From the IMG/VR virus record IMGVR_UViG_2869965101_000004: 52,029 bases of DNA. One strand, 5' to 3'. A program made the translations under genes and the position numbers. The stretch is from a virus (lineage: Duplodnaviria > Heunggongvirae > Uroviricota > Caudoviricetes). The notes under the pieces were generated by a model, which had not been told where the DNA came from, searched no databases, and worked only from the letters and a program-made list of their open reading frames with translations. Within the stretch, counting starts at the first letter, position 1. Each line of letters begins with the position of its first letter. Of the stretch, positions 22,357-41,526 are shown one piece after another.

Positions 22357-22432
22357 GGCCCTTTAGCTCAGTGGTGAGAGCGAGCGACTCATAATCGCCA
22401 GGTCGCTGGTTCAAATCCAGCAAGGGCCACCA
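22357..22432 (+). tRNA. tRNA-Ile2 (anticodon CAU, lysidine-type; ileZ-like)
   Basis: Cloverleaf by eye: acceptor GGCCCTT/AAGGGCC, anticodon loop CTCATAA, T-loop TTCAAAT, encoded CCA. Confidence 0.8.
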
Positions 22433-22439
22433 TCACATA

Positions 22440-22513
22440 CCGCCATTAGCTCATCAGGAAAGAGCGCCAGCCTTCGAAGCTGGCTGCGCGGGGTTCAAGT
22501 CCCCGATGGCGGT
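22440..22513 (+). tRNA. tRNA-Arg (anticodon UCG)
   Basis: Acceptor CCGCCAT/ATGGCGG, anticodon loop CTTCGAA, T-arm CGGGG-TTCAAGT-CCCCG; no encoded CCA. Confidence 0.55.
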
Positions 22514-22529
22514 TCATTATCTGTATCCT

Positions 22530-22606
22530 GCGTTGTTAGCTCAGCCGGACAGAGCAATTGCCTTCTAAGCAATCGGTCACTGGTTCGAATACAGTAGAAC
22601 GCGCCA
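22530..22606 (+). tRNA. tRNA-Arg (anticodon UCU)
   Basis: Acceptor GCGTTGT/AGAACGC (one mismatch), anticodon loop CTTCTAA, CCA encoded; one T-stem mismatch. Confidence 0.6.
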
Positions 22607-22617
22607 CACTTATTTTC

Positions 22618-22647
22618 CCTGGCTCGCTTTTGCGGGCTTTTTTTTAA
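22618..22647 (+). terminator. hairpin plus T-run after the tRNA cluster
   Basis: CTCGC-TTTT-GCGGG followed by nine T. Confidence 0.4.
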
Positions 22648-22896
22648 ATGTCTCACAATTCAGGCGGTTGACTGTTGTCTGGTTTGCGGGGAGTTTGTTA
22701 AAAGAAACTGGCATGGTGAATCCCCCTGTGCGGAGGGGCAATCAGCGAGTAGGTATATGGGATAATCGCAGATTCAGGTGCTGGTACTGAATTCACCGGG
22801 AGGCACCCGGCACCATGCAATGGCACATAGCGCCACTCTCCAGCCCCTCTCCGGAGGGGCTGTTTATATTGATTTTGTCAGATGTGAGTAAACTCC

Positions 22897-23253
22897 TTAT
22901 GGACTTTGTTGTTTTAGCCCATAAGGACATATTTGCAGAGTGCAACGGTTATTAAAGCATTCATTCAATACGTTATCTGTATTTGTAGGGCATTCCTGGC
23001 TGTTTTTGATTAAATTCCAGAATGTTTTATTGAATGGTACTACGTTGTAAATGGTTACAGGTAGCACTTTGTTATTGAGCATGATGCCTGTGTGAGTCAG
23101 TGTAAATATACTTTCAGGAGGTAAGAAAGCATCCGATTGATACCAGATTATTAATTTTATTTTACTCCATATGACTGAAAAAGATATTCCGCATGATGGC
23201 TGGATAACTGTATCAATCACAATCCACTTCATTTGGTTTCCTTGTTTATGCAT
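22897..23253 (-). CDS. hypothetical ORF in AT-rich island
   Basis: 118-aa ORF in a visibly AT-rich segment between the tRNAs and the esterase gene. Confidence 0.3.
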
Positions 23254-23477: not shown

Positions 23478-25358
23478 ATGGTGGAAAGAACCATGGCATT
23501 TAAACACTATGATGTTGTCAGGGCGGCGTCGCCGTCAGATCTTGCGGAAAAGCTGACACATAAACTGAAAGAGGGCTGGCAGCCGTTTGGTAGTCCGGTG
23601 GCCATAACCCCTTATACTCTGATGCAGGCGATTGCAGCAGAAGGTGCAGTAATCAGCGCCACCAGCAACCCGGAGTATTACTTTGTTGTGGTTCTGGCAG
23701 GGCAGTCAAACGGCATGTCGTATGGTGAAGGCCTTCCGCTGCCGGGGACATATGACCGTCCGGACCCGCGTATTAAGCAACTGGCGCGTCGCAGTACGGT
23801 GACACCGGGCGGTGCAGCATGCAAATATAACGACATCATTCCGGCGGACCATTGTCTGCATGATGTGCAGGACATGAGCCGTCTTAACCATCCGAAAGCG
23901 GACCTGTCAAAGGGGCAGTACGGAACCGTGGGGCAGGGGCTGCATATCGCCAAAAAACTGCTGCCGTTTATACCGGCGAATGCGGGCATTCTGCTGGTTC
24001 CGTGCTGTCGTGGTGGTTCAGCGTTCACCACCGGAGCTGATGGCACATACAGTGACGCGAGTGGTGCCTCGGAGAATTCAACCCGCTGGGGTGTGGACAA
24101 GCCGCTGTATAAGGACCTTATCGGTCGAACAAAAGCGGCACTGGAGAAGAACCCGAAAAATGTGCTGTTTGCCGTGGTGTGGATGCAGGGGGAATTTGAT
24201 TTTGGCGGTACGCCGGCAAATCATGCCGCACAGTTTGGTGCGCTGGTTGATAAATTCCGTGCAGACCTGGCGGATATGGCAGGCCAGTGCGTCGGTGGCT
24301 CTGCTGGCGGTGTTCCCTGGATATGCGGGGACACGACGTATTTCTGGAAGCAGAAGAACGAATCCACGTACCAGACGGTGTACGGCAGCTATAAAAATAA
24401 AACGGAAAAGAATATCCATTTCGTACCGTTCATGACCGATGAGAACGGGGTGAATGTGCCGACGAACAAACCGGAAGAAGACCCGGACATTCCGGGTATC
24501 GGTTATTACGGTTCGAAATGGCGTGACAGCTCAGCCACCTGGACGTCACAGGACAGGGCGAGCCATTTCAGTTCATGGGCTCGCCGTGGGATTATTTCCG
24601 ACCGTCTGGCAACGGCGATTCTGAGCTGCGCGGGTAAGTCTTCTGCGTTTGTTAATGGTACTGCCGGGGTGGTTGTTCCAGACAGGCCGGTTACCACCTC
24701 AGAGTCTGTAATTTTTTACGATGCCAAAAAAGCTACAGACAATCAGCTGAAACCTTATGGCTGGGACGGTATGTATGGCAGACGCACACTGGTTGATGAC
24801 AGCGGCAATAAAGCTCTGCGAATTGAGAAAAATAACAGCGCGAAATCCTGGTCAATGTACTGTGATATTGCTGCAGACAAGGCAAAACTTTTACTGGAAA
24901 AAGGCGGGGAAATTGCTGTCCGGTTTAAAATCCCCGAAAACGTCAATCTTGAGACAACCAGAAACAAGTATGCCTTTGGTTTGTACTGGCGAATAGCGGA
25001 ATGGCCGGGTGAGGGTGGTGAAGGCCATCTGAGTTCTTTCTTTGTCCAGACAGATAAAGCCAGTATTAATGTTGCATACCATCATACAGTTAATCAACAA
25101 AAAGAACTTGGCACGTTTGGCGCATTCGACCATGACTGGCATACGCTTGCATTTAAATTTAAGGGCAGTAACAGCATTAATGTTACTCCGGTGCTTGATG
25201 GTGTGGATGGACAGGCGTTTGACCTGGTGAAATGGGCCAATACTGCTAATGGACTCAACAGGTTTGTCATTACGGATATTACAGGTAGTGCAGAAACCTA
25301 CCCTGTACTTATTGATACGGTGGAAGTTAAAGCAAACAAAGCTGGAGCAGCCGCATAA
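23478..25358 (+). CDS. prophage sialate O-acetylesterase (NanS-p-like)
   Basis: N-terminal DUF1737-like region and SGNH/SASA motif VVLAGQSNGMSYGEG; same position as in Stx-type phages. Confidence 0.7.
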   Translation: MVERTMAFKHYDVVRAASPSDLAEKLTHKLKEGWQPFGSPVAITPYTLMQAIAAEGAVISATSNPEYYFVVVLAGQSNGMSYGEGLPLPGTYDRPDPRIKQLARRSTVTPGGAACKYNDIIPADHCLHDVQDMSRLNHPKADLSKGQYGTVGQGLHIAKKLLPFIPANAGILLVPCCRGGSAFTTGADGTYSDASGASENSTRWGVDKPLYKDLIGRTKAALEKNPKNVLFAVVWMQGEFDFGGTPANHAAQFGALVDKFRADLADMAGQCVGGSAGGVPWICGDTTYFWKQKNESTYQTVYGSYKNKTEKNIHFVPFMTDENGVNVPTNKPEEDPDIPGIGYYGSKWRDSSATWTSQDRASHFSSWARRGIISDRLATAILSCAGKSSAFVNGTAGVVVPDRPVTTSESVIFYDAKKATDNQLKPYGWDGMYGRRTLVDDSGNKALRIEKNNSAKSWSMYCDIAADKAKLLLEKGGEIAVRFKIPENVNLETTRNKYAFGLYWRIAEWPGEGGEGHLSSFFVQTDKASINVAYHHTVNQQKELGTFGAFDHDWHTLAFKFKGSNSINVTPVLDGVDGQAFDLVKWANTANGLNRFVITDITGSAETYPVLIDTVEVKANKAGAAA

Positions 25359-25950: not shown

Positions 25951-26026
25951 GCATGTGCAAGGGACCATCGGTGTGTGCCGGTGGTCTTTATATTGTTGTG
26001 AGCTTCCGGATTGCGGGAGACGGGGT

Positions 26027-26242
26027 ATGTACCAGATGGAAAAAATCACAACAGGTGTGTCATACACCACGTCAGCGGTGGGAACGGGCTACTGGTTCCT
26101 GCAGTTGCTGGACAGGGTTTCCCCGTCTCAGTGGGCGGCAATAGGCGTGCTGGGGAGTCTGTTGTTTGGGCTGCTGACATATCTGACTAACCTGTATTTC
26201 AAAATCAGAGAGGACCGTCGTAAGGCGGCGCGGGGAGAGTAA
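26027..26242 (+). CDS. S21-type pinholin with dual start motif
   Basis: MYQMEKITT...[35 protein letters not shown]; Met1 and Met4 give antiholin/holin starts. Confidence 0.75.
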
Positions 26243-26246
26243 AGCG

Positions 26247-26591
26247 ATGAAGAAAAAATACGAACTGGTTGTTAAAGGGATAAATAATTACCCGAATAAG
26301 ATTACTGTTACTGTGGCACTGGAAATTGGTGGGTATCCGTCACTGTTGTTGCCAGATGTGGCGATTAGTCTTGACCGTACTGAAGATGCCACGCTGGAGT
26401 TTTACGAAGCTGAGGCGAAAAAGCAGGCGAAGCAGTTTTTCATGGATGTTGCTGCCGGGTTATGTGAAGGGGATGGTCCGTTGCCGGAAAAGCGCCCCGT
26501 AATTTTAGAGGCGCAGGATGTGTTGATAACCTACAGAGGAAAACTACCGGGAATAATTACGGGTTCTCTGAAGACTCCACCGCTGGCCTGA
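26247..26591 (+). CDS. hypothetical protein inside the lysis cassette
   Basis: 114-aa ORF starting 4 nt after the holin stop and ending 50 nt before the endolysin. Confidence 0.5.
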   Translation: MKKKYELVVKGINNYPNKITVTVALEIGGYPSLLLPDVAISLDRTEDATLEFYEAEAKKQAKQFFMDVAAGLCEGDGPLPEKRPVILEAQDVLITYRGKLPGIITGSLKTPPLA

Positions 26592-26641
26592 AGACTTAAC
26601 ATATCCAGGGATTTGAAATCGATAAACCCTGATAAATATCC

Positions 26642-27175
26642 ATGAACACCAAAATCAAATACGGCCTGTCGGCTGCCGTTCTGGCGCTGATTGCCGCAGG
26701 TGCGCCTGCGCCTGAAATCCTCGACCAGTTTCTGGATGAAAAGGAAGGTAACCACACCACGGCATACCGTGATGGCGCGGGTATCTGGACCATCTGCCGC
26801 GGTGCCATCCTGGTGGATAGTAAACCTGTCGTCCCGGGCATGAAGTTGTCGAAGGAAAAATGCGACCAGGTCAACGCCATTGAGCGTGATAAGGCGCTGG
26901 CATGGGTGGAGCGCAATATTAAAGTGCCGCTGACCGAACCCCAGAAAGCGGGTATCGCGTCATTTTGTCCCTATAACATTGGCCCCGGTAAGTGTTTCCC
27001 GTCGACGTTTTACAGACGGATTAATGCTGGTGACCGCAGGGGAGCATGCGAAGCGATTCGCTGGTGGATTAAGGACGGTGGCAGAGACTGCCGTATCCGC
27101 TCAAATAATTGCTACGGTCAGGTATCCCGGCGAGACCAGGAAAGTGCGCTGGCGTGCTGGGACATCGACAGATAA
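26642..27175 (+). CDS. SAR endolysin (GH24 lysozyme)
   Basis: N-terminal signal-anchor-release segment YGLSAAVLALIAAGA and lysozyme core EGNHTTAYRDGAGIWTICRGA. Confidence 0.8.
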   Translation: MNTKIKYGLSAAVLALIAAGAPAPEILDQFLDEKEGNHTTAYRDGAGIWTICRGAILVDSKPVVPGMKLSKEKCDQVNAIERDKALAWVERNIKVPLTEPQKAGIASFCPYNIGPGKCFPSTFYRRINAGDRRGACEAIRWWIKDGGRDCRIRSNNCYGQVSRRDQESALACWDIDR

Positions 27176-27656
27176 GCAGAATATTTTGCTGAAAAATAAG
27201 GCATGAGCACGCGGACGGATAACACGAAATCCTGCGAACTGGCGAAACGTAAGTGAATAAAAGTAAAAACCCCGTTTGTTGGCACCAAGCGGGGTTTTGT
27301 GTTTCTGACCTTGAGTAAGGCAAGGGAGAACATGGCGAAGTATAAACGAATTCTGTTGAGGTTGACCATGAAAAACGGCCTTGAACTGAAAGCGCCTGTA
27401 ACTGATGACATCAGCAGAGCACTGGCTTTTGCCATTAAGTGGATGGCGGTCGGTGTTGCTGTGTCCCCGATGCTGTATGGGCTGGCAAAACTGGTCATTG
27501 CGTTGAAATCGTGAAGGGAGGATTAAGCATGTCAGACAAACTCATAACGCTGGCGAAGATCCTCTGTGTAATTGTCGGCATTTCATTTTCACTAATGCTG
27601 GTTGCTCTTTTTCTTTCCATGGCCTGGATGATGTTGTCTTCGTCGGGGCTGCTGGG

Positions 27657-28130
27657 GTGAACATAAACCGAATGCTTTCCGCGTTTACCGTTATTCTGCT
27701 GGTGGTCTGTGGTGCGCTGTGGCTGGCAACAGACCATTACCGTGATAACGCCATCACCTACAAAGCGCAGCGCGATAAAAAAGCCAGAGAGCTGGAGCTG
27801 GCAAACGCAACCATTACTGACATGCAGCAGCGCCAGCGTGATGTTGCTGCGCTTGATGCCAGATACTCAAGGGAATTAGCCGATGCGAGAGCTGAAAATG
27901 AAACTCTGCGTGCTGATGTTGCCGCTGGTCGTAAGCGCCTGCGGATCAACGCCACCTGCTCCGGTACCGTGCGTGAAGCCACCGGCACCTCCGGAATGGA
28001 TAATGCAACCGGCCCCCGACTGGCAGACACCGCTGAACGGGATTATTTCACCCTCAGAGAGCGGTTGATGACAATGCAGAAGCAACTGGAAGGGGCGCAG
28101 GAATATATCCGCACTCAGTGTATTAACTAG
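27657..28130 (+). CDS. Rz i-spanin
   Basis: N-terminal TM helix, coiled-coil periplasmic domain, follows the endolysin. Confidence 0.8.
27883..28068 (+). CDS. Rz1 o-spanin lipoprotein, embedded in Rz in the +1 frame
   Basis: Lipobox LVVSAC and proline-rich mature part. Confidence 0.7.
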
Positions 28131-28378: not shown

Positions 28379-28716
28379 GCGACCTTATTAACCATGCGCG
28401 GTATTGTCGCCGTATCCCCGCATTAACAGAGACCGCAGCCCGACCGGGAGACTCCTCTGCGCGAGTGTGCGGGGATAATCAAAAACGATACACACCGGGG
28501 TTTACCGCGTTAACGGAGCGCGGCGTTGTCCCCTCATGGTCGCTGGTCCGGTGCGATGGTGGAAGAAACCGGACGATGTGTTACCTCGCAAGCTCTGTTA
28601 TGTCATGTGTCTGATTTGTGATTTAAGTCGGATAATTGTCGTTGCCATTAAGCAGAGGATTGATGACCGACAGGGTGGCATTGTTAGAATAAGACTTATT
28701 CTTATCTGTGCCGGGA

Positions 28717-29049
28717 ATGAAAATGAAAAGAAACCTTCCGTTAATTATTTTGTTGTCTTCTCTGGTTATGGGCTGTACGCAACATAAAACAGATATGCCC
28801 CGACAGTTGGTTAAGGCATTACCACAATATCCGGCCTATGCAGCGGCAAATTATATAAAGGGACGGGTTGATGTGAGGTTTGATATTGGTGCTGATGGTA
28901 CTGTCACCCGAATTGAGTTTATTCGTTCAGAGCCGCACCATCTGTTTGATGAGCAGGTTGTAAAGGCGATGGCAAAATGGCGATTTGAGAAGGACAGGCC
29001 GTGTAAAGGCGTGAAGAAAACGTTTATCTTTAGTCCTTCCGCACCCTGA
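28717..29049 (+). CDS. lipoprotein with TonB C-terminal-like domain
   Basis: Signal peptide with lipobox LVMGC; ...LPQYPAYAAANYIKGRVDVRFDIGADGTVTRIEFIRSE...AMAKWRF matches the TonB_C pattern. Confidence 0.6.
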   Translation: MKMKRNLPLIILLSSLVMGCTQHKTDMPRQLVKALPQYPAYAAANYIKGRVDVRFDIGADGTVTRIEFIRSEPHHLFDEQVVKAMAKWRFEKDRPCKGVKKTFIFSPSAP

Positions 29050-29180: not shown

Positions 29181-29381
29181 TCATTTCTCGTTATTTGTCA
29201 TGCTGGCCGGGCGCAGATGCGTTGCATCTGTTGCCAGCCTTCTCCTGCAGGCTTCAATAACCCACGCTGAAAAGTTTCCTGAACCTTTCAGATCAAGAGC
29301 GATGTTAATTTGTTCAATCATCTGGTTTGGAAATCGGATGTTGCGGGTTGTTGTTCTGCGGGTTCTGTTCTTTGATGACAT
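29181..29381 (-). CDS. YlcI/YnfO-like small prophage protein
   Basis: 66-aa ORF, ribbon-helix-helix-like NIRFPNQMIEQINIALD. Confidence 0.45.
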   Translation of the reverse strand: MSSKNRTRRTTTRNIRFPNQMIEQINIALDLKGSGNFSAWVIEACRRRLATDATHLRPASMTNNEK

Positions 29382-29596
29382 AATGTTTCCCCATATTCAG
29401 TGTTGCTGATTTGTATTATCTGAAGTTGCTTTTACGTTAATTTGATGCAGATCAATCAATACGATAGTAAGGCAGTATGACTTTCCGTGAGACAGATGCT
29501 GGCCAACGTGGGATATTTAACGCGGGTTAACATCGTTGTCAGAGCCGCATGGGTGAGCTGTTGCTACACCCCGGTATTTCCACCACGGAGGCCAGC

Positions 29597-30724
29597 ATGA
29601 ACAACAATAACACATTGTACGTCGGGTTAGATGTTCACAAAGAATCGATTACTGTCGCTTATGCTATCAATTCAGAACCTGTTGAACTGATGGGTAAAAT
29701 TGGCACATCACCTACTGATATTCAGAATCTTTGTAAACGTCTCAGGTCAAAGTCATCGCAGGTCAGTATCGTTTATGAAGCGGGGCCCTGTGGTTATGGA
29801 CTTTATCGTCGGCTGGTGAAATCCGGTTTTGACTGCATGGTCTGCGCCCCCTCACTTATCCCGAAAAAACCGGGGGAGCGGGTTAAAACCGATCGCCGTG
29901 ATGCCATCAGACTTGTGCGTTCACTGCGTGCAGGAGATCTTTCTGCTGTCTACGTACCCGGCATTGAAGATGAGGCATTCCGGGATTTGGCCCGGGCATG
30001 GGCATCTGCCCGCGATGATTTACGGCATGCAAGGCAACGTCTGAAATCGTTTCTTCTGGTTCATGGGGTCCATTATGTCGGGCGAGCAGATTGGGGCCCT
30101 GCACACCGACGCTGGCTCAGCAAATACTCATTCGAAAGTCCCTGGCGACAATTAGCTTTTGACGAACACCGTCGTACAATAGAAGACCGGCAGGCACAAT
30201 GTGAACGGCTGGAATCCGCCCTGAAGGAGGCCGTTACCGAATGGAGGCTGTATCCGGTAGTAGAGGCGCTGCAAGCCATGCGAGGGATTCAGTTTATTAC
30301 TGCGGTTGGATTAATTTCTGAACTGGGTGATCTGACCCGTTTTGAACATCCACGACAACTGATGTCATGGTTTGGTATCACGCCATCAGAATATTCATCG
30401 GGTGGAAGCAGACATCAGGGCAGCATTACCAAAGCCGGAAACAGCTATGCCAGAAAGCTATTGGTCGAGGCAGCGTGGAGTTACCGTCATCCGGCACGCA
30501 TCAGTCCGGCAATACAAAAAAGGCAGGAAAATTTACCCCGCCCCGTCATTGACAGAGCATGGGATGCTCAACTCAGGCTTTGTAAGAGGTATCGAAAACT
30601 TCAGGCCAAAGGAAAGAATGTCAATATTACAATTGTTGCTGTTGCACGTGAGCTGGCGGGTTTTATCTGGGATATGGGCCGAATAGCAATGTCTGTCGCA
30701 CAACAACCACAATGTCACAAATAA
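29597..30724 (+). CDS. IS110-family (DEDD) transposase/recombinase
   Basis: N-terminal LYVGLDVHKESI... RuvC-like start and C-terminal ...QFITAVGLISELGDLTRFEHPRQLMSWFGITPSEYSSGG. Confidence 0.8.
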   Translation: MNNNNTLYVGLDVHKESITVAYAINSEPVELMGKIGTSPTDIQNLCKRLRSKSSQVSIVYEAGPCGYGLYRRLVKSGFDCMVCAPSLIPKKPGERVKTDRRDAIRLVRSLRAGDLSAVYVPGIEDEAFRDLARAWASARDDLRHARQRLKSFLLVHGVHYVGRADWGPAHRRWLSKYSFESPWRQLAFDEHRRTIEDRQAQCERLESALKEAVTEWRLYPVVEALQAMRGIQFITAVGLISELGDLTRFEHPRQLMSWFGITPSEYSSGGSRHQGSITKAGNSYARKLLVEAAWSYRHPARISPAIQKRQENLPRPVIDRAWDAQLRLCKRYRKLQAKGKNVNITIVAVARELAGFIWDMGRIAMSVAQQPQCHK

Positions 30725-39626: not shown

Positions 39627-41526
39627 TATGATGAGTGCTGTCACAACAGCATTACAGCCCCTGATAAGGGCATTGCCGGTGACGCCAGTTGAATGGGCTG
39701 ATCAAAATTATTATCTGCCTAAAGAATCTTCATATGGTGAGGGAGAATGGAAAACGCTGCCGTTCCAGGTCGCCATTATGAACTGTATGGGTAACGACCA
39801 GGTTCGCACGGTTAACCTGATTAAATCTGCCCGTGTTGGCTATACAAAGATGTTGCTGGGGGTGGTCGGGTATTTTATTGAGCATAAATCACGAAACAGT
39901 CTGCTTTTTCAGCCCACGGATTCTGCCGCTGAAGATTTTATGAAGTCTCACGTGGAGGCGACGATTCGGGATGTGCCATGCCTGAAAGACCTTTCCCCAT
40001 GGCTGGGTCGTAAACATCGTGATAATACCCTCACGCTGAAACGTTTTTCATCGGGCGTGGGCTTCTGGTGCCTGGGCGGGGCTGCCGCTAAAAACTACCG
40101 TGAAAAATCCGTGGACGTGGTCTGCTATGACGAACTTTCCTCGTTCGAACCGGATGTCGAAAAAGAGGGTTCGCCAACCCTGCTGGGGGATAAACGTATT
40201 GAGGGCTCTGTATGGCCCAAATCCATTCGCGGCTCGACGCCTAAAATCAAAGGCACCTGCCAGATCGAAAAAGCGGCCAACGAGTCGGCGCATTTTATGC
40301 GTTTTTATGTGCCCTGCCCACACTGTGGGGAGGAGCAGTATCTGAAATTTGGCGATGAGTCCACGCCTTTTGGGCTTAAATGGGAGAAGGACAGTCCCGA
40401 AAGTGTTTTCTACCTCTGTGAACATCATGGCTGCGTGATCCATCAGTCTGAACTGGACCAGAGCAACGGGCGGTGGATCTGTGAAAACACGGGCATGTGG
40501 ACCCGTGACGGTCTGACGTTTTTCAGCGCTGCGGGTAATGAAATTCCGCCGCCGCGCTCCATCACGTTCCATATCTGGACGGCGTACAGTCCGTTTACCA
40601 CCTGGGTACAGATAGTCTATGACTGGCTGGATGCACTGAAAGATCCCAACGGCCTGAAAACCTTTGTGAACACCACGCTGGGCGAGACCTGGGAAGAAGC
40701 CGTGGGCGAAAAACTCGATCACCAGGTACTGATGGATAAGGTCGTGCATTACACGGCGGCGGTACCTGCCCGGGTGGTTTATCTGACGGCGGGCATTGAC
40801 TCGCAGCGAAACCGTTTTGAGATGTATGTCTGGGGATGGGCACCGGGAGAGGAAGCTTTTCTGGTGGATAAAATCATCATTATGGGCCGTCCCGATGAGG
40901 AAGAGACGCTGTTACGTGTGGATGCGGCGATCAACAAAAAATACTGCCATGCAGACGGAACCGAAATGACCATTTCCCGTGTCTGCTGGGACACCGGGGG
41001 GATCGATGGTGAAATTGTCTATCAGAGGTCAAAAAAACACGGTGTTTTCCGGGGGCTGCCGGTAAAAGGCGCATCTGTCTATGGCAAGCCGGTGATCACC
41101 ATGCCGAAAACCCGCAATCAGCGGGGCGTGTATCTGTGTGAAGTGGGGACGGACACCGCAAAAGAAATTCTCTATGCCCGTATGAAAGCCGATCCCACGC
41201 CTGCGGATGAAGCCACGTCGTATGCCATCCGTTTTCCTGATGATCCGGAGATTTTTTCGCAGACAGAGGCGCAGCAACTGGTCGCGGAAGAGCTTGTGGA
41301 GAAGTGGGAAAAAGGAAAGATGCGTCTGCTGTGGGATAACAAAAAGCGGCGTAACGAAGCGCTGGACTGCCTGGTGTATGCCTACGCGGCATTACGTGTG
41401 TCCGTGCAACGCTGGCAGCTTGATCTGGCTGTACTGGCAAAATCCCGGGAAGAAGAGACGACCCGGCCAACCCTTAAAGAACTGGCAGCGAAGCTGTCCG
41501 GAGGAGTGAATGGTTACAGTCGCTGA
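39598..41526 (+). CDS. A: terminase large subunit (lambda A-like)
   Basis: Colinear with lambda gpA (..AVEWADANYYLPKES.., Walker A, ..FVNTTLGETWE..). Confidence 0.9.
   Translation: MNISEQQLNNMMSAVTTALQPLIRALPVTPVEWADQNYYLPKESSYGEGEWKTLPFQVAIMNCMGNDQVRTVNLIKSARVGYTKMLLGVVGYFIEHKSRNSLLFQPTDSAAEDFMKSHVEATIRDVPCLKDLSPWLGRKHRDNTLTLKRFSSGVGFWCLGGAAAKNYREKSVDVVCYDELSSFEPDVEKEGSPTLLGDKRIEGSVWPKSIRGSTPKIKGTCQIEKAANESAHFMRFYVPCPHCGEEQYLKFGDESTPFGLKWEKDSPESVFYLCEHHGCVIHQSELDQSNGRWICENTGMWTRDGLTFFSAAGNEIPPPRSITFHIWTAYSPFTTWVQIVYDWLDALKDPNGLKTFVNTTLGETWEEAVGEKLDHQVLMDKVVHYTAAVPARVVYLTAGIDSQRNRFEMYVWGWAPGEEAFLVDKIIIMGRPDEEETLLRVDAAINKKYCHADGTEMTISRVCWDTGGIDGEIVYQRSKKHGVFRGLPVKGASVYGKPVITMPKTRNQRGVYLCEVGTDTAKEILYARMKADPTPADEATSYAIRFPDDPEIFSQTEAQQLVAEELVEKWEKGKMRLLWDNKKRRNEALDCLVYAYAALRVSVQRWQLDLAVLAKSREEETTRPTLKELAAKLSGGVNGYSR

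Follow-up and report, generated by a model that had tools for sequence, protein, structure and literature searches.

A prophage lipoprotein with a TonB C-terminal domain, encoded in the post-lysis moron slot

The window analyzed here is a viral DNA stretch of 52,029 nucleotides (Caudoviricetes; IMG/VR record IMGVR_UViG_2869965101_000004). In the moron slot behind its lysis genes lies a small prophage gene, which encodes a lipoprotein with a TonB C-terminal domain as its mature part (Table 1). An earlier note on this DNA had placed an open reading frame of about 110 amino acids here, and the frame was found at that place. The enclosing frame extends from 28708 to 29049 on the plus strand and can be entered at GTG 28708, ATG 28717 or ATG 28723. 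Translation from ATG 28717, the start chosen in the earlier note, gives a product of 110 amino acids, and translation from ATG 28723 gives 108. RefSeq relatives are annotated from the position equivalent to ATG 28723, which also has the better Shine-Dalgarno spacing of the two ATG codons, with a GGGAA 6 nt upstream. In the databases, the protein goes by the names “TonB family protein” and “protein TonB”. A full-text search found no literature on a phage-encoded TonB_C lipoprotein, or on any phage-encoded TonB mimic, and the gene is apparently unstudied to date. A PADLOC search for defence systems gave no meaningful match for the protein.

Table 1. Features of the TonB_C lipoprotein gene and its surroundings. 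Positions refer to the window, except for the TolA-domain lipoprotein, which lies in a related prophage (L001).
Feature	Position	Strand	Basis
P21-type holin	25955-26242	+	Pfam
DUF1327 gene	26247-26591	+	Pfam
Lysozyme	26642-27175	+	Pfam
Rz	27657-28130	+	Pfam Phage_lysis, 169 bits
Rz1, embedded in Rz	27883-28068	+	Pfam Rz1, 70 bits
Lysis cassette as a whole	25955..28130	+	Pfam
Promoter-like site: ATGACC, 16-nt spacer, TAGAAT; extended -10 TGtTAGAAT (28682-28690)	28663..28690	+	Consensus scan
8-1-8 palindrome AGAATAAG-A-CTTATTCT, overlapping the -10 and the putative start site	28686..28702	.	Sequence
Shine-Dalgarno-like GGGAA	28712..28716	+	Sequence; 6 nt before ATG 28723
TonB_C lipoprotein CDS, 108 aa and stop	28723..29049	+	ORF list; RefSeq relatives
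Signal peptide, residues 1-17, MKRNLPLIILLSSLVMG	28723..28773	+	Sequence; low pLDDT in AF2 model
Lipobox L-V-M-G-C (L14-V15-M16-G17-C18)	28762..28776	+	PROSITE-type rule, by inspection
Tether TQHKTDM, 7 residues, lipid anchor to P26 (TonB P153)	28777..28797	+	TonB alignment
TonB C-terminal domain, residues 26-104 (E. coli TonB 153-231)	28798..29034	+	Profiles, alignment, AF2/Foldseek
Strand beta3, residues 94-103 (TonB 221-230)	29002..29031	+	DSSP on AF2 model; alignment
YlcI/YnfO (DUF3950) gene	29181..29381	-	Pfam; RefSeq annotation of relatives
IS110-family transposase, after the YlcI/YnfO gene	29549-30724		Pfam; RefSeq annotation of relatives
TolA-domain lipoprotein, annotated ‘tolA’	L001 14083-14511		PF06519

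The gene starts 587 bp downstream of Rz/Rz1. In an intact relative (L001) it is flanked by the lysis genes on one side and by the small terminase subunit on the other, which bears out the location between lysis genes and cos proposed beforehand. In the window itself, an IS cluster has displaced and inverted cos/Nu1, and the gene has been retained despite a packaging module broken by IS elements. The comparison with the slot of bor-type genes, made at the same time, was right as to position, since bor/iss stands side by side with the gene in phage 21 and in the prophage of UTI89. The latter prophage also has an ompC-like porin gene.

In every phage locus examined, the gene is co-oriented with the lysis genes and directly follows them, whatever the cassette type, be it P21 pinholin, lysozyme and Rz in E. 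coli, or S-type holin, GH19 and DUF2514 in Salmonella. Such a constant place could, instead of the decoy function favored below, point to a late, lysis-linked role, in which the protein would aid or time the disruption of the outer membrane together with the spanins. The best PHROG match, phrog_1267 (E=1e-42), is indeed labeled as an Rz-like spanin. Still, we consider a lysis accessory highly improbable. The cassette already has its complete Rz/Rz1 pair, and the product is a globular TonB_C protein, unlike a short, proline-rich o-spanin, and has neither a hydrophobic C-terminus nor the C-terminal transmembrane segment of a u-spanin. Moreover, the post-lysis slot is a general moron site, in which bor/iss is found too, and chromosomal orthologues (see below) have no lysis genes nearby. 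The spanin label of phrog_1267 is most likely a positional mis-annotation.

The N-terminus of the protein has the layout of a lipoprotein signal, with a basic n-region (MKR), a hydrophobic h-region (NLPLIILLSS), and LVMG followed by Cys18. By inspection, it agrees with the lipoprotein rule of a basic n-region, a hydrophobic h-region and a Cys-ended lipobox within the first 15-35 residues. The n- and h-regions are conserved in relatives, and the cysteine of the lipobox, LVMGC as already read in the earlier note, is invariant among full-length relatives, down to about 40% identity. The mature protein is predicted to begin with Cys18, in lipidated form. Because the +2 residue is Thr, and not Asp, we infer that the lipidated protein would be sorted to the outer membrane by Lol. 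All full-length relatives have T, S or A at this position, and never Asp. The tether between the lipid anchor and the domain measures 7-14 residues across the family, which includes relatives from Escherichia, Salmonella, Klebsiella, Raoultella, Gibbsiella, Rahnella and Erwinia/Pantoea. Pantoea additionally has soluble periplasmic versions with a type I signal peptide.

The remainder of the protein aligns gap-free with E. coli TonB, with 30 identical residues out of 79 (38%). The TonB C-terminal pattern, already noticed in the earlier note, is far beyond chance. The Pfam search recommended at that stage gave a significant match to TonB_C (PF03544, E=9e-15, 55.3 bits against a cut-off of 24.6), TIGR01352 (tonB_Cterm) scored 55.1 bits against a cut-off of 27.1, and phmmer matched TonB chains in the PDB at 1e-15. 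The PQYP motif at residues 34-37 corresponds to TonB 161-164, and the aromatic core formed by Y36, F53, F75, W86 and F88 to TonB Y163, F180, F202, W213 and Y215. Structure prediction, likewise recommended, yielded the TonB C-terminal fold, with an overall AF2 pLDDT of 85 and core values above 93. DSSP assigned strands to residues 28-30, 47-55, 61-70 and 94-103, and helices to residues 38-42 and 76-84. The best Foldseek matches were 1u07, 2gsk_B and 2grx_C (probability 1.00, target TM-score ~0.9, rmsd 1.1-1.2 Å), and the model superposes on TonB from both the BtuB:TonB (2gsk_B) and the FhuA:TonB (2grx_C) complexes. The viral structure library BFVD gave no match at E<=0.001, and therefore the fold is nearly missing among catalogued viral proteins.

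The lipoprotein shares its fold with the C-terminal domain of E. coli TonB (residues ~150-239; 1U07, 2GSK chain B, 2GRX chain C), and it is basic as well (pI 9.6, compared with 10.4). Unlike TonB, it stands alone, without the His20 membrane anchor and the proline-rich spacer, and stops four residues earlier. Furthermore, TonB is anchored in the inner membrane, whereas the lipoprotein is predicted to be lipid-anchored from the outer-membrane side. The database names imply a working TonB paralogue, which would energize transporters for iron uptake. The annotation and the match of the C-terminal domain are all that speaks for such a paralogue, and its architecture refutes it, leaving practically no chance for this explanation. 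In place of an uncleaved N-terminal membrane anchor, whose conserved His couples TonB to ExbB/ExbD, stands a cleavable lipoprotein signal, and residues 1-18 contain no His; the proline-rich spacer gives way to the seven residues from Cys18 to the domain; and the protein has 108 amino acids, compared with 239. Against the TonB energy transducers (PRK10819 equivalogs), it scores 49-74 bits, where the cut-offs are 265-448, and these matches cover the last ~80 positions only.

About 30% of complete E. coli genomes carry the gene, in the form of two alleles. One was found in 415 of 5426 genomes, and the other, which is the allele of phage 21, in 1225 of 5426. Among the carriers are EDL933 (EHEC), UTI89 (UPEC) and the classical phage 21. 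Judging from the gene order of DLP12 and Qin, the prophages of E. coli K-12 appear to be without the gene, and this may be the reason why it escaped classical genetics. A contig scan also brought up a 69% match in a 418-bp contig assigned to “Modestobacter”, which we regard as contamination.

The gene is under purifying selection, with a dN/dS of 0.06-0.13 (0.12 in comparison with the phage-21 allele) at near-saturated dS. All 80 of the 80 IMG/VR loci have an intact copy with few amino-acid variants, and 1203 of the 1225 genomes with the phage-21 allele match it at 99% identity or more. The lipobox and the residues of the fold are conserved down to about 40% identity. These results leave very little room for a decaying, functionless remnant, which might otherwise be suspected because some database relatives are frameshifted or C-terminally truncated (P0012, P0013, P0017-P0021) and because the window prophage is riddled with IS elements.

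Our favored explanation, to which we assign a probability of roughly 0.4, is that the protein is a TonB mimic, which, tethered to the outer membrane, occupies TonB boxes and blocks TonB-dependent import. It cannot transduce energy, because it is without the membrane anchor of TonB and without the proline spacer with which TonB spans the periplasm. The secreted protein, with little beyond the TonB C-terminal domain and the seven-residue tether, would be anchored by its lipid in the inner leaflet of the outer membrane. The lipid anchor and the short tether would hold the domain at the periplasmic face of this membrane, where the TonB boxes emerge. There, the TonB boxes of transporters such as FhuA, FepA, CirA and BtuB could become its docking sites through beta-strand addition, and possibly those of incoming group B colicins as well. 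Native TonB would then be kept from engaging, so that the protein would act as a natural dominant-negative TonB mimic. A lysogen, or an induced cell, would no longer be sensitive to TonB-dependent phages (T1/phi80-type), colicins, microcins or albomycin, at the cost of a lower siderophore and B12 uptake.

We infer both the binding to TonB boxes and the exclusion phenotype. The earlier note had already offered, as speculation, that a periplasmic TonB-C mimic might interfere with TonB-dependent receptors. Such interference is made more plausible by the short, conserved tether, the predicted sorting to the outer membrane, the retention of beta3 and PQYP, and the published precedents. The match of domain and fold to TonB, the purifying selection on the gene and its spread, and the TolA-domain lipoprotein of related prophages (see below) also count in favor of the decoy. 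The parts with which TonB contacts TonB boxes are kept in the lipoprotein, namely beta3 and the PQYP segment around TonB Q160-Y163. In TonB, beta3 pairs with the TonB box of FhuA, and position 160 interacts genetically with TonB boxes (PMC11658791). As related in PMC9841981, overexpression of a periplasmic TonB domain reduces iron import through TBDTs by inhibition, with engineered fragments inhibiting transport by FhuA and FecA (Howard, Herrmann, Stratilo & Braun 2001, J Bacteriol 183:5885). According to the same paper, killing by colicins and infection by phi80 are inhibited by a TonB-box peptide (Tuckman & Osburne 1992, cited there). The engineered fragments represent a direct functional precedent. 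Similar to the lipoprotein, they comprise the C-terminal part of TonB without the energy-coupling N-terminus, in a periplasmic location that for the lipoprotein is predicted. However, they are artificial, soluble and overexpressed, whereas the phage protein is natural, shorter and, by prediction, lipid-tethered.

Two residues count against the decoy. TonB R166 is replaced by an invariant Tyr, and Q160 is not conserved. The window allele has L at the latter position and the phage-21 allele has Y, and the position varies elsewhere, with Q retained in one Raoultella orthologue. Pawelek et al. reportedly described in 2006 that R166 of TonB contacts E56 of FhuA in 2GRX. A further difference from TonB is the replacement of K197 by an invariant Glu. 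In addition, stoichiometric blocking would need high expression, because the transporters can outnumber a modestly expressed moron product.

TonB itself is far less abundant than its transporters. The stoichiometry problem would thus be solved if the tethered domain interfered with the Ton system elsewhere, by capturing the C-terminal domain of native TonB in a beta3 heterodimer or by binding the periplasmic domain of ExbD, since it would then titrate the scarce energizer and not the abundant transporters. The conserved fold and beta3 are in line with such a capture, and so is the crystallization of isolated TonB C-terminal domains as dimers, with 1u07 being among the best structural matches. 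The dimeric crystal forms of TonB were, however, reported to be absent in vivo (PMC3005593), and nothing in our results separates TonB or ExbD as a target from the TonB boxes. We rate this alternative as improbable.

Upstream of the gene, the core TGT(T/C)AGAAT of the promoter-like site is conserved in phage 21, and the -35 is not. The evidence for a promoter is weak, because the count of such sites is no higher than in shuffled sequence. This weakness counts against the high expression that the decoy would need. The palindrome overlapping the -10 is of doubtful significance, because its right arm is missing in phage 21. It also overlaps the best Fur-box match of the region (13/19, starting from 28688, by Fur-consensus scoring). 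Regulation by Fur was set aside, as matches of the 13/19 grade occur ~26 times in the window and as the right arm is missing in phage 21.

The family is not limited to phages. Klebsiella and Raoultella have chromosomal, non-prophage orthologues, with lacZYI, a weakly LTXXQ/Spy/CpxP-like gene (below the Pfam cut-off) and a Rick_17kDa glycine-zipper lipoprotein gene as neighbors. These orthologues weaken a purely phage-warfare reading of the decoy, and point to a possible housekeeping role in the envelope. The TonB-like domain would in this case bind peptidoglycan, or another partner at the periplasmic face, in a structural or stress-related function, and the phage copy would be a fitness-conversion gene like bor/iss. 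The ordinary chromosomal context of the orthologues, the soluble Pantoea versions, and the company of bor/iss and, in UTI89, of a porin gene all agree with an envelope role. On the other hand, the distance between the outer membrane and the peptidoglycan is set by Lpp, and a domain of ~30 Å on a tether of 7-14 residues would probably fall short of the peptidoglycan layer. Peptidoglycan binding by the TonB C-terminal domain, which Kaserer et al. are said to have described in 2008, is also a minority view, and the envelope role has no comparable known family. Overall, we see it as rather unlikely.

The proposed decoy logic is shared with small outer-membrane lipoproteins of phages, namely Llp of T5 and the Cor proteins of T1, phi80, N15 and HK022. 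Llp jams FhuA from the periplasmic side, and the Cor proteins probably act alike (PMC9586334); in a 2024 review of superinfection exclusion, Cor is the sole entry for FhuA. Llp, though, is specific for FhuA and binds its plug and not the TonB box, and the llp gene adjoins that of the receptor-binding protein, whereas the TonB_C lipoprotein gene follows the lysis cassette. Of the three families that the protein matched in PHROG (phrog_1267, phrog_34172 and phrog_812), none is an exclusion family, and together with the fold this sets the protein apart from Llp and Cor.

Llp and Cor shut off the receptor that their own phage uses. The C-terminus of the phage 21 J protein is 57% identical to that of lambda J and 55% to that of phage 434 J, and because of this likeness the receptor of phage 21 is probably a porin. 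A Cor-like self-exclusion device was set aside on these grounds. The J protein of phage 21, being lambda/434-like and no obvious binder of a TonB-dependent receptor, weakens a purely phage-warfare reading.

Bor of lambda and Iss of E. coli are outer-membrane lipoproteins, as the TonB_C lipoprotein is predicted to be, and are likewise encoded by a moron in the slot that separates Rz from cos. However, bor lies on the opposite strand, whereas the TonB_C lipoprotein gene is co-oriented with the late operon. The TonB_C lipoprotein had no match to the Pfam family Lambda_Bor at E<=0.1, and is no Bor homologue.

A closer parallel in design comes from related E. coli prophages, which encode a lipoprotein with domain III of TolA (lipobox LTTGC; PF06519, E=2.9e-22). 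Here too, a lipobox is combined with the outer-membrane-proximal domain of a trans-envelope energy system, in a prophage-borne and uncharacterized gene. The two genes differ in their slots, as the TolA-III lipoprotein gene comes after the tRNAs, where stx sits, and the TonB_C lipoprotein gene after the lysis genes. Sometimes they occur in the same prophage, and the window is without the TolA-III lipoprotein gene. This parallel suggests a recurring design, in which the domains of the Ton and Tol systems that contact the outer membrane are copied and tethered by a lipid. Tentatively, both proteins may be decoys of energy couplers, with the TonB_C lipoprotein blocking all TonB boxes at once and the TolA-III lipoprotein doing likewise for the Tol pathway. 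If true, lysogens would gain a broad immunity against TonB-dependent phages, group B colicins, microcins and sideromycin antibiotics, and the genes would form a new class of lysogenic-conversion genes, carried by ~30% of complete E. coli genomes, among them reference strains of EHEC and UPEC.

Should the decoy reading of the TonB_C lipoprotein hold, a very common prophage gene would alter the iron and vitamin B12 uptake of E. coli, as well as its susceptibility to TonB-dependent phages, colicins and microcins, and to siderophore-conjugated antibiotics (albomycin-type, or cefiderocol-like Trojan horses). This would matter for predicting host ranges in phage therapy, for competition by means of bacteriocins in the gut, and for Trojan-horse antibiotics and the resistance to them. 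The protein would also be a natural, compact inhibitor of the interaction between TonB and the TonB box, which is pursued as a drug target (PMC9841981). If, on the contrary, the protein is an envelope lipoprotein with another role, the gene would still be an uncharacterized conversion gene adjoining iss in ExPEC.

A further observation concerns the phage records that carry the two alleles. Because the seven phage records with the phage-21 allele represent one genus, their co-occurrence with sitABCD is taken as shared ancestry and not as evidence of a link; sitABCD is present in 7/7 of these records and in 0/7 of the records with the window allele.

The open reading frame at 28708-29049 (+) of the window encodes a predicted lipoprotein with a TonB C-terminal domain. 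Translation from ATG 28717 gives 110 aa, beginning with MKMKRN; RefSeq relatives start at the equivalent of the next ATG, 28723 (108 aa), which on inspection follows a GGGAA Shine-Dalgarno at a distance of 6 nt and from which residues are counted here. Residues 1-18 (MKRNLPLIILLSSLVMG-C) form a basic n-region, a hydrophobic h-region and a lipobox with Cys18 as its last residue, and seven residues (TQHKTDM) separate Cys18 from the TonB-like domain. P26-S104 align gap-free to residues 153-231 of E. coli TonB, with 30 of 79 positions identical. The Pfam TonB_C profile matched with 55.3 bits (cut-off 24.6), and TIGR01352 with 55.1 (cut-off 27.1). An AlphaFold2 model, for which 17 relatives served as input, reached a pLDDT >93 across the domain and has the topology of TonB: a short strand, a helix, two strands, a helix and strand beta3. 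In a Foldseek search of the PDB, the top 11 matches were all TonB structures; the matches included the TonB chains of BtuB:TonB (2gsk_B) and FhuA:TonB (2grx_C), with an rmsd of 1.1-1.2 A and a target TM-score of ~0.9. A search of the viral structure library BFVD gave no significant match to the fold. The earlier note had described 28717-29049 as a lipoprotein with a lipobox and a TonB C-terminal domain, and had named a Pfam search and structure prediction as checks; both agree with it, and every particular is confirmed.

The database names 'protein TonB' and 'TonB family protein' would make the product a true, energy-transducing TonB. This is ruled out: it has a cleavable lipoprotein signal instead of a signal anchor, it lacks the proline-rich spacer, and the TonB equivalog models score far below their cut-offs (49-74 bits against 265-448), covering only the C-terminal ~80 positions. 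For these reasons, the protein cannot transduce energy. PHROG assigns it to phrog_1267 ('Rz-like spanin', category lysis). A spanin is disfavoured, because a canonical Rz with an embedded Rz1 already lies upstream; furthermore, the gene starts 587 bp after Rz, and its product is globular, without a C-terminal membrane segment. The likeliest origin of the label is the position of the gene, and the mis-annotation could propagate. A Bor homologue was ruled out by the Pfam search.

In the window, the P21-type holin gene is followed by DUF1327, lysozyme, two small ORFs, Rz/Rz1, a 74-aa ORF, the TonB_C gene, ynfO (-) and IS elements (see table). In an intact related E. coli prophage (CB6837, L001), the small and large terminase subunits come directly after ynfO; its lysozyme and Rz genes overlap directly, without the insertion found in the window. 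Phage 21 and the UTI89 prophage at icd share the order Rz/Rz1, bor/iss (-), the TonB_C gene and cos/terminase, so the placement in an accessory slot between lysis genes and cos, as proposed earlier by analogy to bor, holds, with bor/iss itself adjoining. The gene also lies downstream of endolysin and spanin genes in a Klebsiella phage, nine Salmonella-type prophage loci and six metagenomic viral contigs, at 0.1-0.2 kb from the spanin gene in loci with a detected one and at 0.5-0.7 kb from the endolysin gene in the rest, with a terminase gene downstream in 11 of 15 such loci. The position is kept across differing lysis cassettes and terminases; the Salmonella cassettes, for example, have an S-type holin, a GH19 endolysin and a DUF2514 spanin. 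In all cases the gene is co-oriented with the late operon, and late transcription from pR' would therefore be expected.

Features of the window around the TonB_C gene
Feature	Position	Strand	Remarks
tRNA genes Met-CAT, Arg-TCG, Arg-TCT, then 118-aa ORF	22357-23253		
118-aa ORF	22897-23253	-	phrog_4407
626-aa ORF	23478-25358		positional equivalent in L001 annotated SASA family carbohydrate esterase
Insertion, 480 bp	27176-27656		between lysozyme and Rz
Small ORF, 71 aa	27299-27514		phrog_1115; hydrophobic stretches
Small ORF, 44 aa	~27526-27660		phrog_4906; hydrophobic stretches
Rz	27657-28130		
Rz1	27883-28068		embedded in Rz
Extended -10 of sigma-70-like site	28682-28690		TGtTAGAAT; site ~30 nt before start codon
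Perfect 8-1-8 palindrome	28686-28702		AGAATAAG-A-CTTATTCT; overlaps putative -10 and start site
IS cluster	29549-39411		between ynfO and large terminase
IS110-family transposase gene, 391 aa	29549-30724	+	brackets rest of IS cluster, inverted relative to the other copy
IS66-family copy	31017-33406	-	
Small terminase Nu1	33458-33877	-	inverted relative to gpA
IS66-family copy	34288-37943	+	interrupted by IS3-type rve gene
IS3-type rve gene	35795-36613		
IS110-family transposase gene, 391 aa	38236-39411	-	brackets rest of IS cluster
gpA	39541-41526	+	

From its gene order, the packaging module of the window looks rearranged, and the prophage is therefore probably defective. The TonB_C gene is intact despite this disruption, as it is in all 80 retrieved IMG/VR loci, which hold only a handful of amino-acid variants (the exact window allele in six). 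The window and phage-21 alleles (71% identical) differ with a dN/dS of 0.12 at a dS of ~1.5, and two Raoultella orthologues with a dN/dS of 0.06. Set against the rival that it is a remnant, this is a real gene under selection. The second Cys of the window allele (DRPCKG) is replaced by Arg in many copies and not conserved.

A survey of related prophages, also suggested in the earlier note, found the gene to be widespread. The window-type allele occurs in 415 of 5426 complete E. coli genomes (482 places, all chromosomal), including EDL933 and O55:H7, and the phage-21-type allele in 1225 of the same 5426, including UTI89. Besides the classical lambdoid phage 21, in which the depositors annotated a 'TonB C-terminal domain protein', carriers include ev017, Perceval, three PhiR phages, JLK-2012, Lys8385Vzw, four Stx1a phages and one Klebsiella phage. 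Distant members (36-50% identity) come from Salmonella, Klebsiella, Raoultella, Gibbsiella, Rahnella and Erwinia/Pantoea; nearly all have a lipobox, and Pantoea agglomerans has a version with an ordinary signal peptide. Outside the family, the closest relatives are TonB C-terminal domains. A 418-bp 'Modestobacter excelsi' contig (NZ_SJEX01000172.1) codes for 67 residues from the N-terminus, which are 69% identical to the query and over their length match the phage-21 allele; enterobacterial DNA has almost certainly contaminated this actinobacterial assembly.

When the TonB C-terminal domain binds a transporter or a TonB-dependent colicin, it adds the partner's TonB box as a strand parallel to beta3; TonB-box mutations are suppressed by substitutions at TonB Q160, and irreversible adsorption of phage T1 requires TonB and the proton-motive force (PMC11658791). 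PMC9841981 cites two cases of inhibition: that of transporter-dependent iron import when the periplasmic TonB domain is overproduced (Howard et al. 2001), and that of phi80 infection and colicin killing by a pentapeptide with the TonB-box sequence (Tuckman & Osburne 1992). FhuA is jammed by Llp of phage T5, an outer-membrane lipoprotein on the periplasmic side, and the authors of that work propose this as a general phage strategy (PMC9586334). In our protein, strand beta3 (residues 94-103) and the PQYP segment are retained. The +2 residue is never Asp in the family, and sorting to the outer membrane is therefore predicted. With a tether of 7 residues (7-14 across the family), the domain would thus sit where TonB boxes emerge and could not span the periplasm. 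We tentatively propose, with a probability of roughly 40%, that the protein is a lipid-tethered, energy-dead TonB mimic under the outer membrane, which would compete with TonB for TonB boxes and so might close TonB-dependent entry routes. Sequence, fold, conservation of the lipobox, selection, prevalence and gene order are observed, whereas lipidation, location, binding and phenotype are inferred.

Differences from TonB within the domain weaken this proposal. All family members have Tyr in place of TonB R166 and Glu in place of K197; the position of Q160 is variable, with Tyr in the phage-21 allele and Leu in the window allele, the latter coinciding with the classical suppressor Q160L. A rival reading is that the protein titrates TonB or ExbD. 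Against competition at TonB boxes also stands that blocking abundant transporters needs substantial expression, and that the strict linkage to the lysis cassette could reflect a late role; another rival sees the protein as a lysis accessory. A Cor-like device against the phage's own receptor was rejected, because the J C-terminus of phage 21 resembles those of lambda (57% identical) and phage 434 (55%).

A further rival, an envelope-structural role, draws on chromosomal orthologues (46-47% identity) in Raoultella lignicola (L005, 4929-6333) and Klebsiella sp. R445 (L088, 6939-8336), near which no phage genes were found. Their cluster adjoins lacI-lacZ-lacY and holds a glycine-zipper (Rick_17kDa_Anti) lipoprotein and an LTXXQ (Spy/CpxP-like) periplasmic protein, the latter a weak Pfam match below the cut-off. 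These chromosomal orthologues weaken the mimic proposal, in that they suggest a possible cellular envelope function.

As for the expression which TonB mimicry would need, the -10 core of the upstream site is conserved in phage 21, and the promoter scan as a whole found sites no more numerous than in shuffled sequence; judged from sequence, expression in a lysogen is plausible but unproven. The palindrome overlaps the best upstream match to the Fur consensus (13/19, from 28688), and its right arm is missing in phage 21, which makes its significance doubtful.

A parallel supports the theme of a TonB mimic by analogy. The CB6837 prophage encodes, at the stx/tRNA slot ~6 kb upstream of its TonB_C gene (L001 14083-14511), a 142-aa protein with a lipobox (LTTGC) and a TolA C-terminal domain (PF06519, E=2.9e-22), which may be the Tol-pathway counterpart. 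This gene was found in five of the 36 retrieved loci with enough upstream flank (L001, L029, L031, L036, L061) and is absent from the window; similar sequence, annotated 'tolA', occurs in 895 of 5426 E. coli genomes and one phage record, mEp460_ev081. E. coli prophages would therefore bear lipid-tethered, outer-membrane-proximal domains of both trans-envelope energy systems. In the window, the slot that holds stx in Stx phages and the TolA-domain gene in L001 is occupied by the 118-aa ORF.

The TonB_C gene and its domain are already visible in public annotation, and the older string 'partial tonB-like membrane protein encoded within prophage CP-933N' indicates that the TonB similarity was noticed long ago. 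A full-text literature search found no description of the architecture and its implied function, and a recent review of superinfection exclusion likewise lacks them. By its hypothetical function, the protein would join the outer-membrane lipoproteins with which phages target TonB-dependent transport, as one derived from a captured TonB domain. The gene is common, found in both EHEC and UPEC, and mechanistically suggestive, and its hypothetical phenotype is trivially testable.

The UTI89 prophage (L090, UTI89 1240189-1280515, next to icd) bundles several envelope-conversion genes: its lysis cassette is preceded by an ompC-like porin gene and followed by iss, which is homologous to bor, and by the TonB_C lipoprotein gene. 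Phage 21 also carries sitABCD (OL657228 21967-25416; L089 8968-12417), an ABC importer for iron and manganese that, so far as is known, does not depend on TonB. sitA is present in 7/7 phage records with the phage-21 allele, and sit is absent from 7/7 window-allele records; 19 further sit-positive E. coli phage records are without the TonB_C gene. This co-occurrence probably reflects shared ancestry within one genus, though it is suggestive that a putative TonB blocker goes together with a metal importer independent of TonB.
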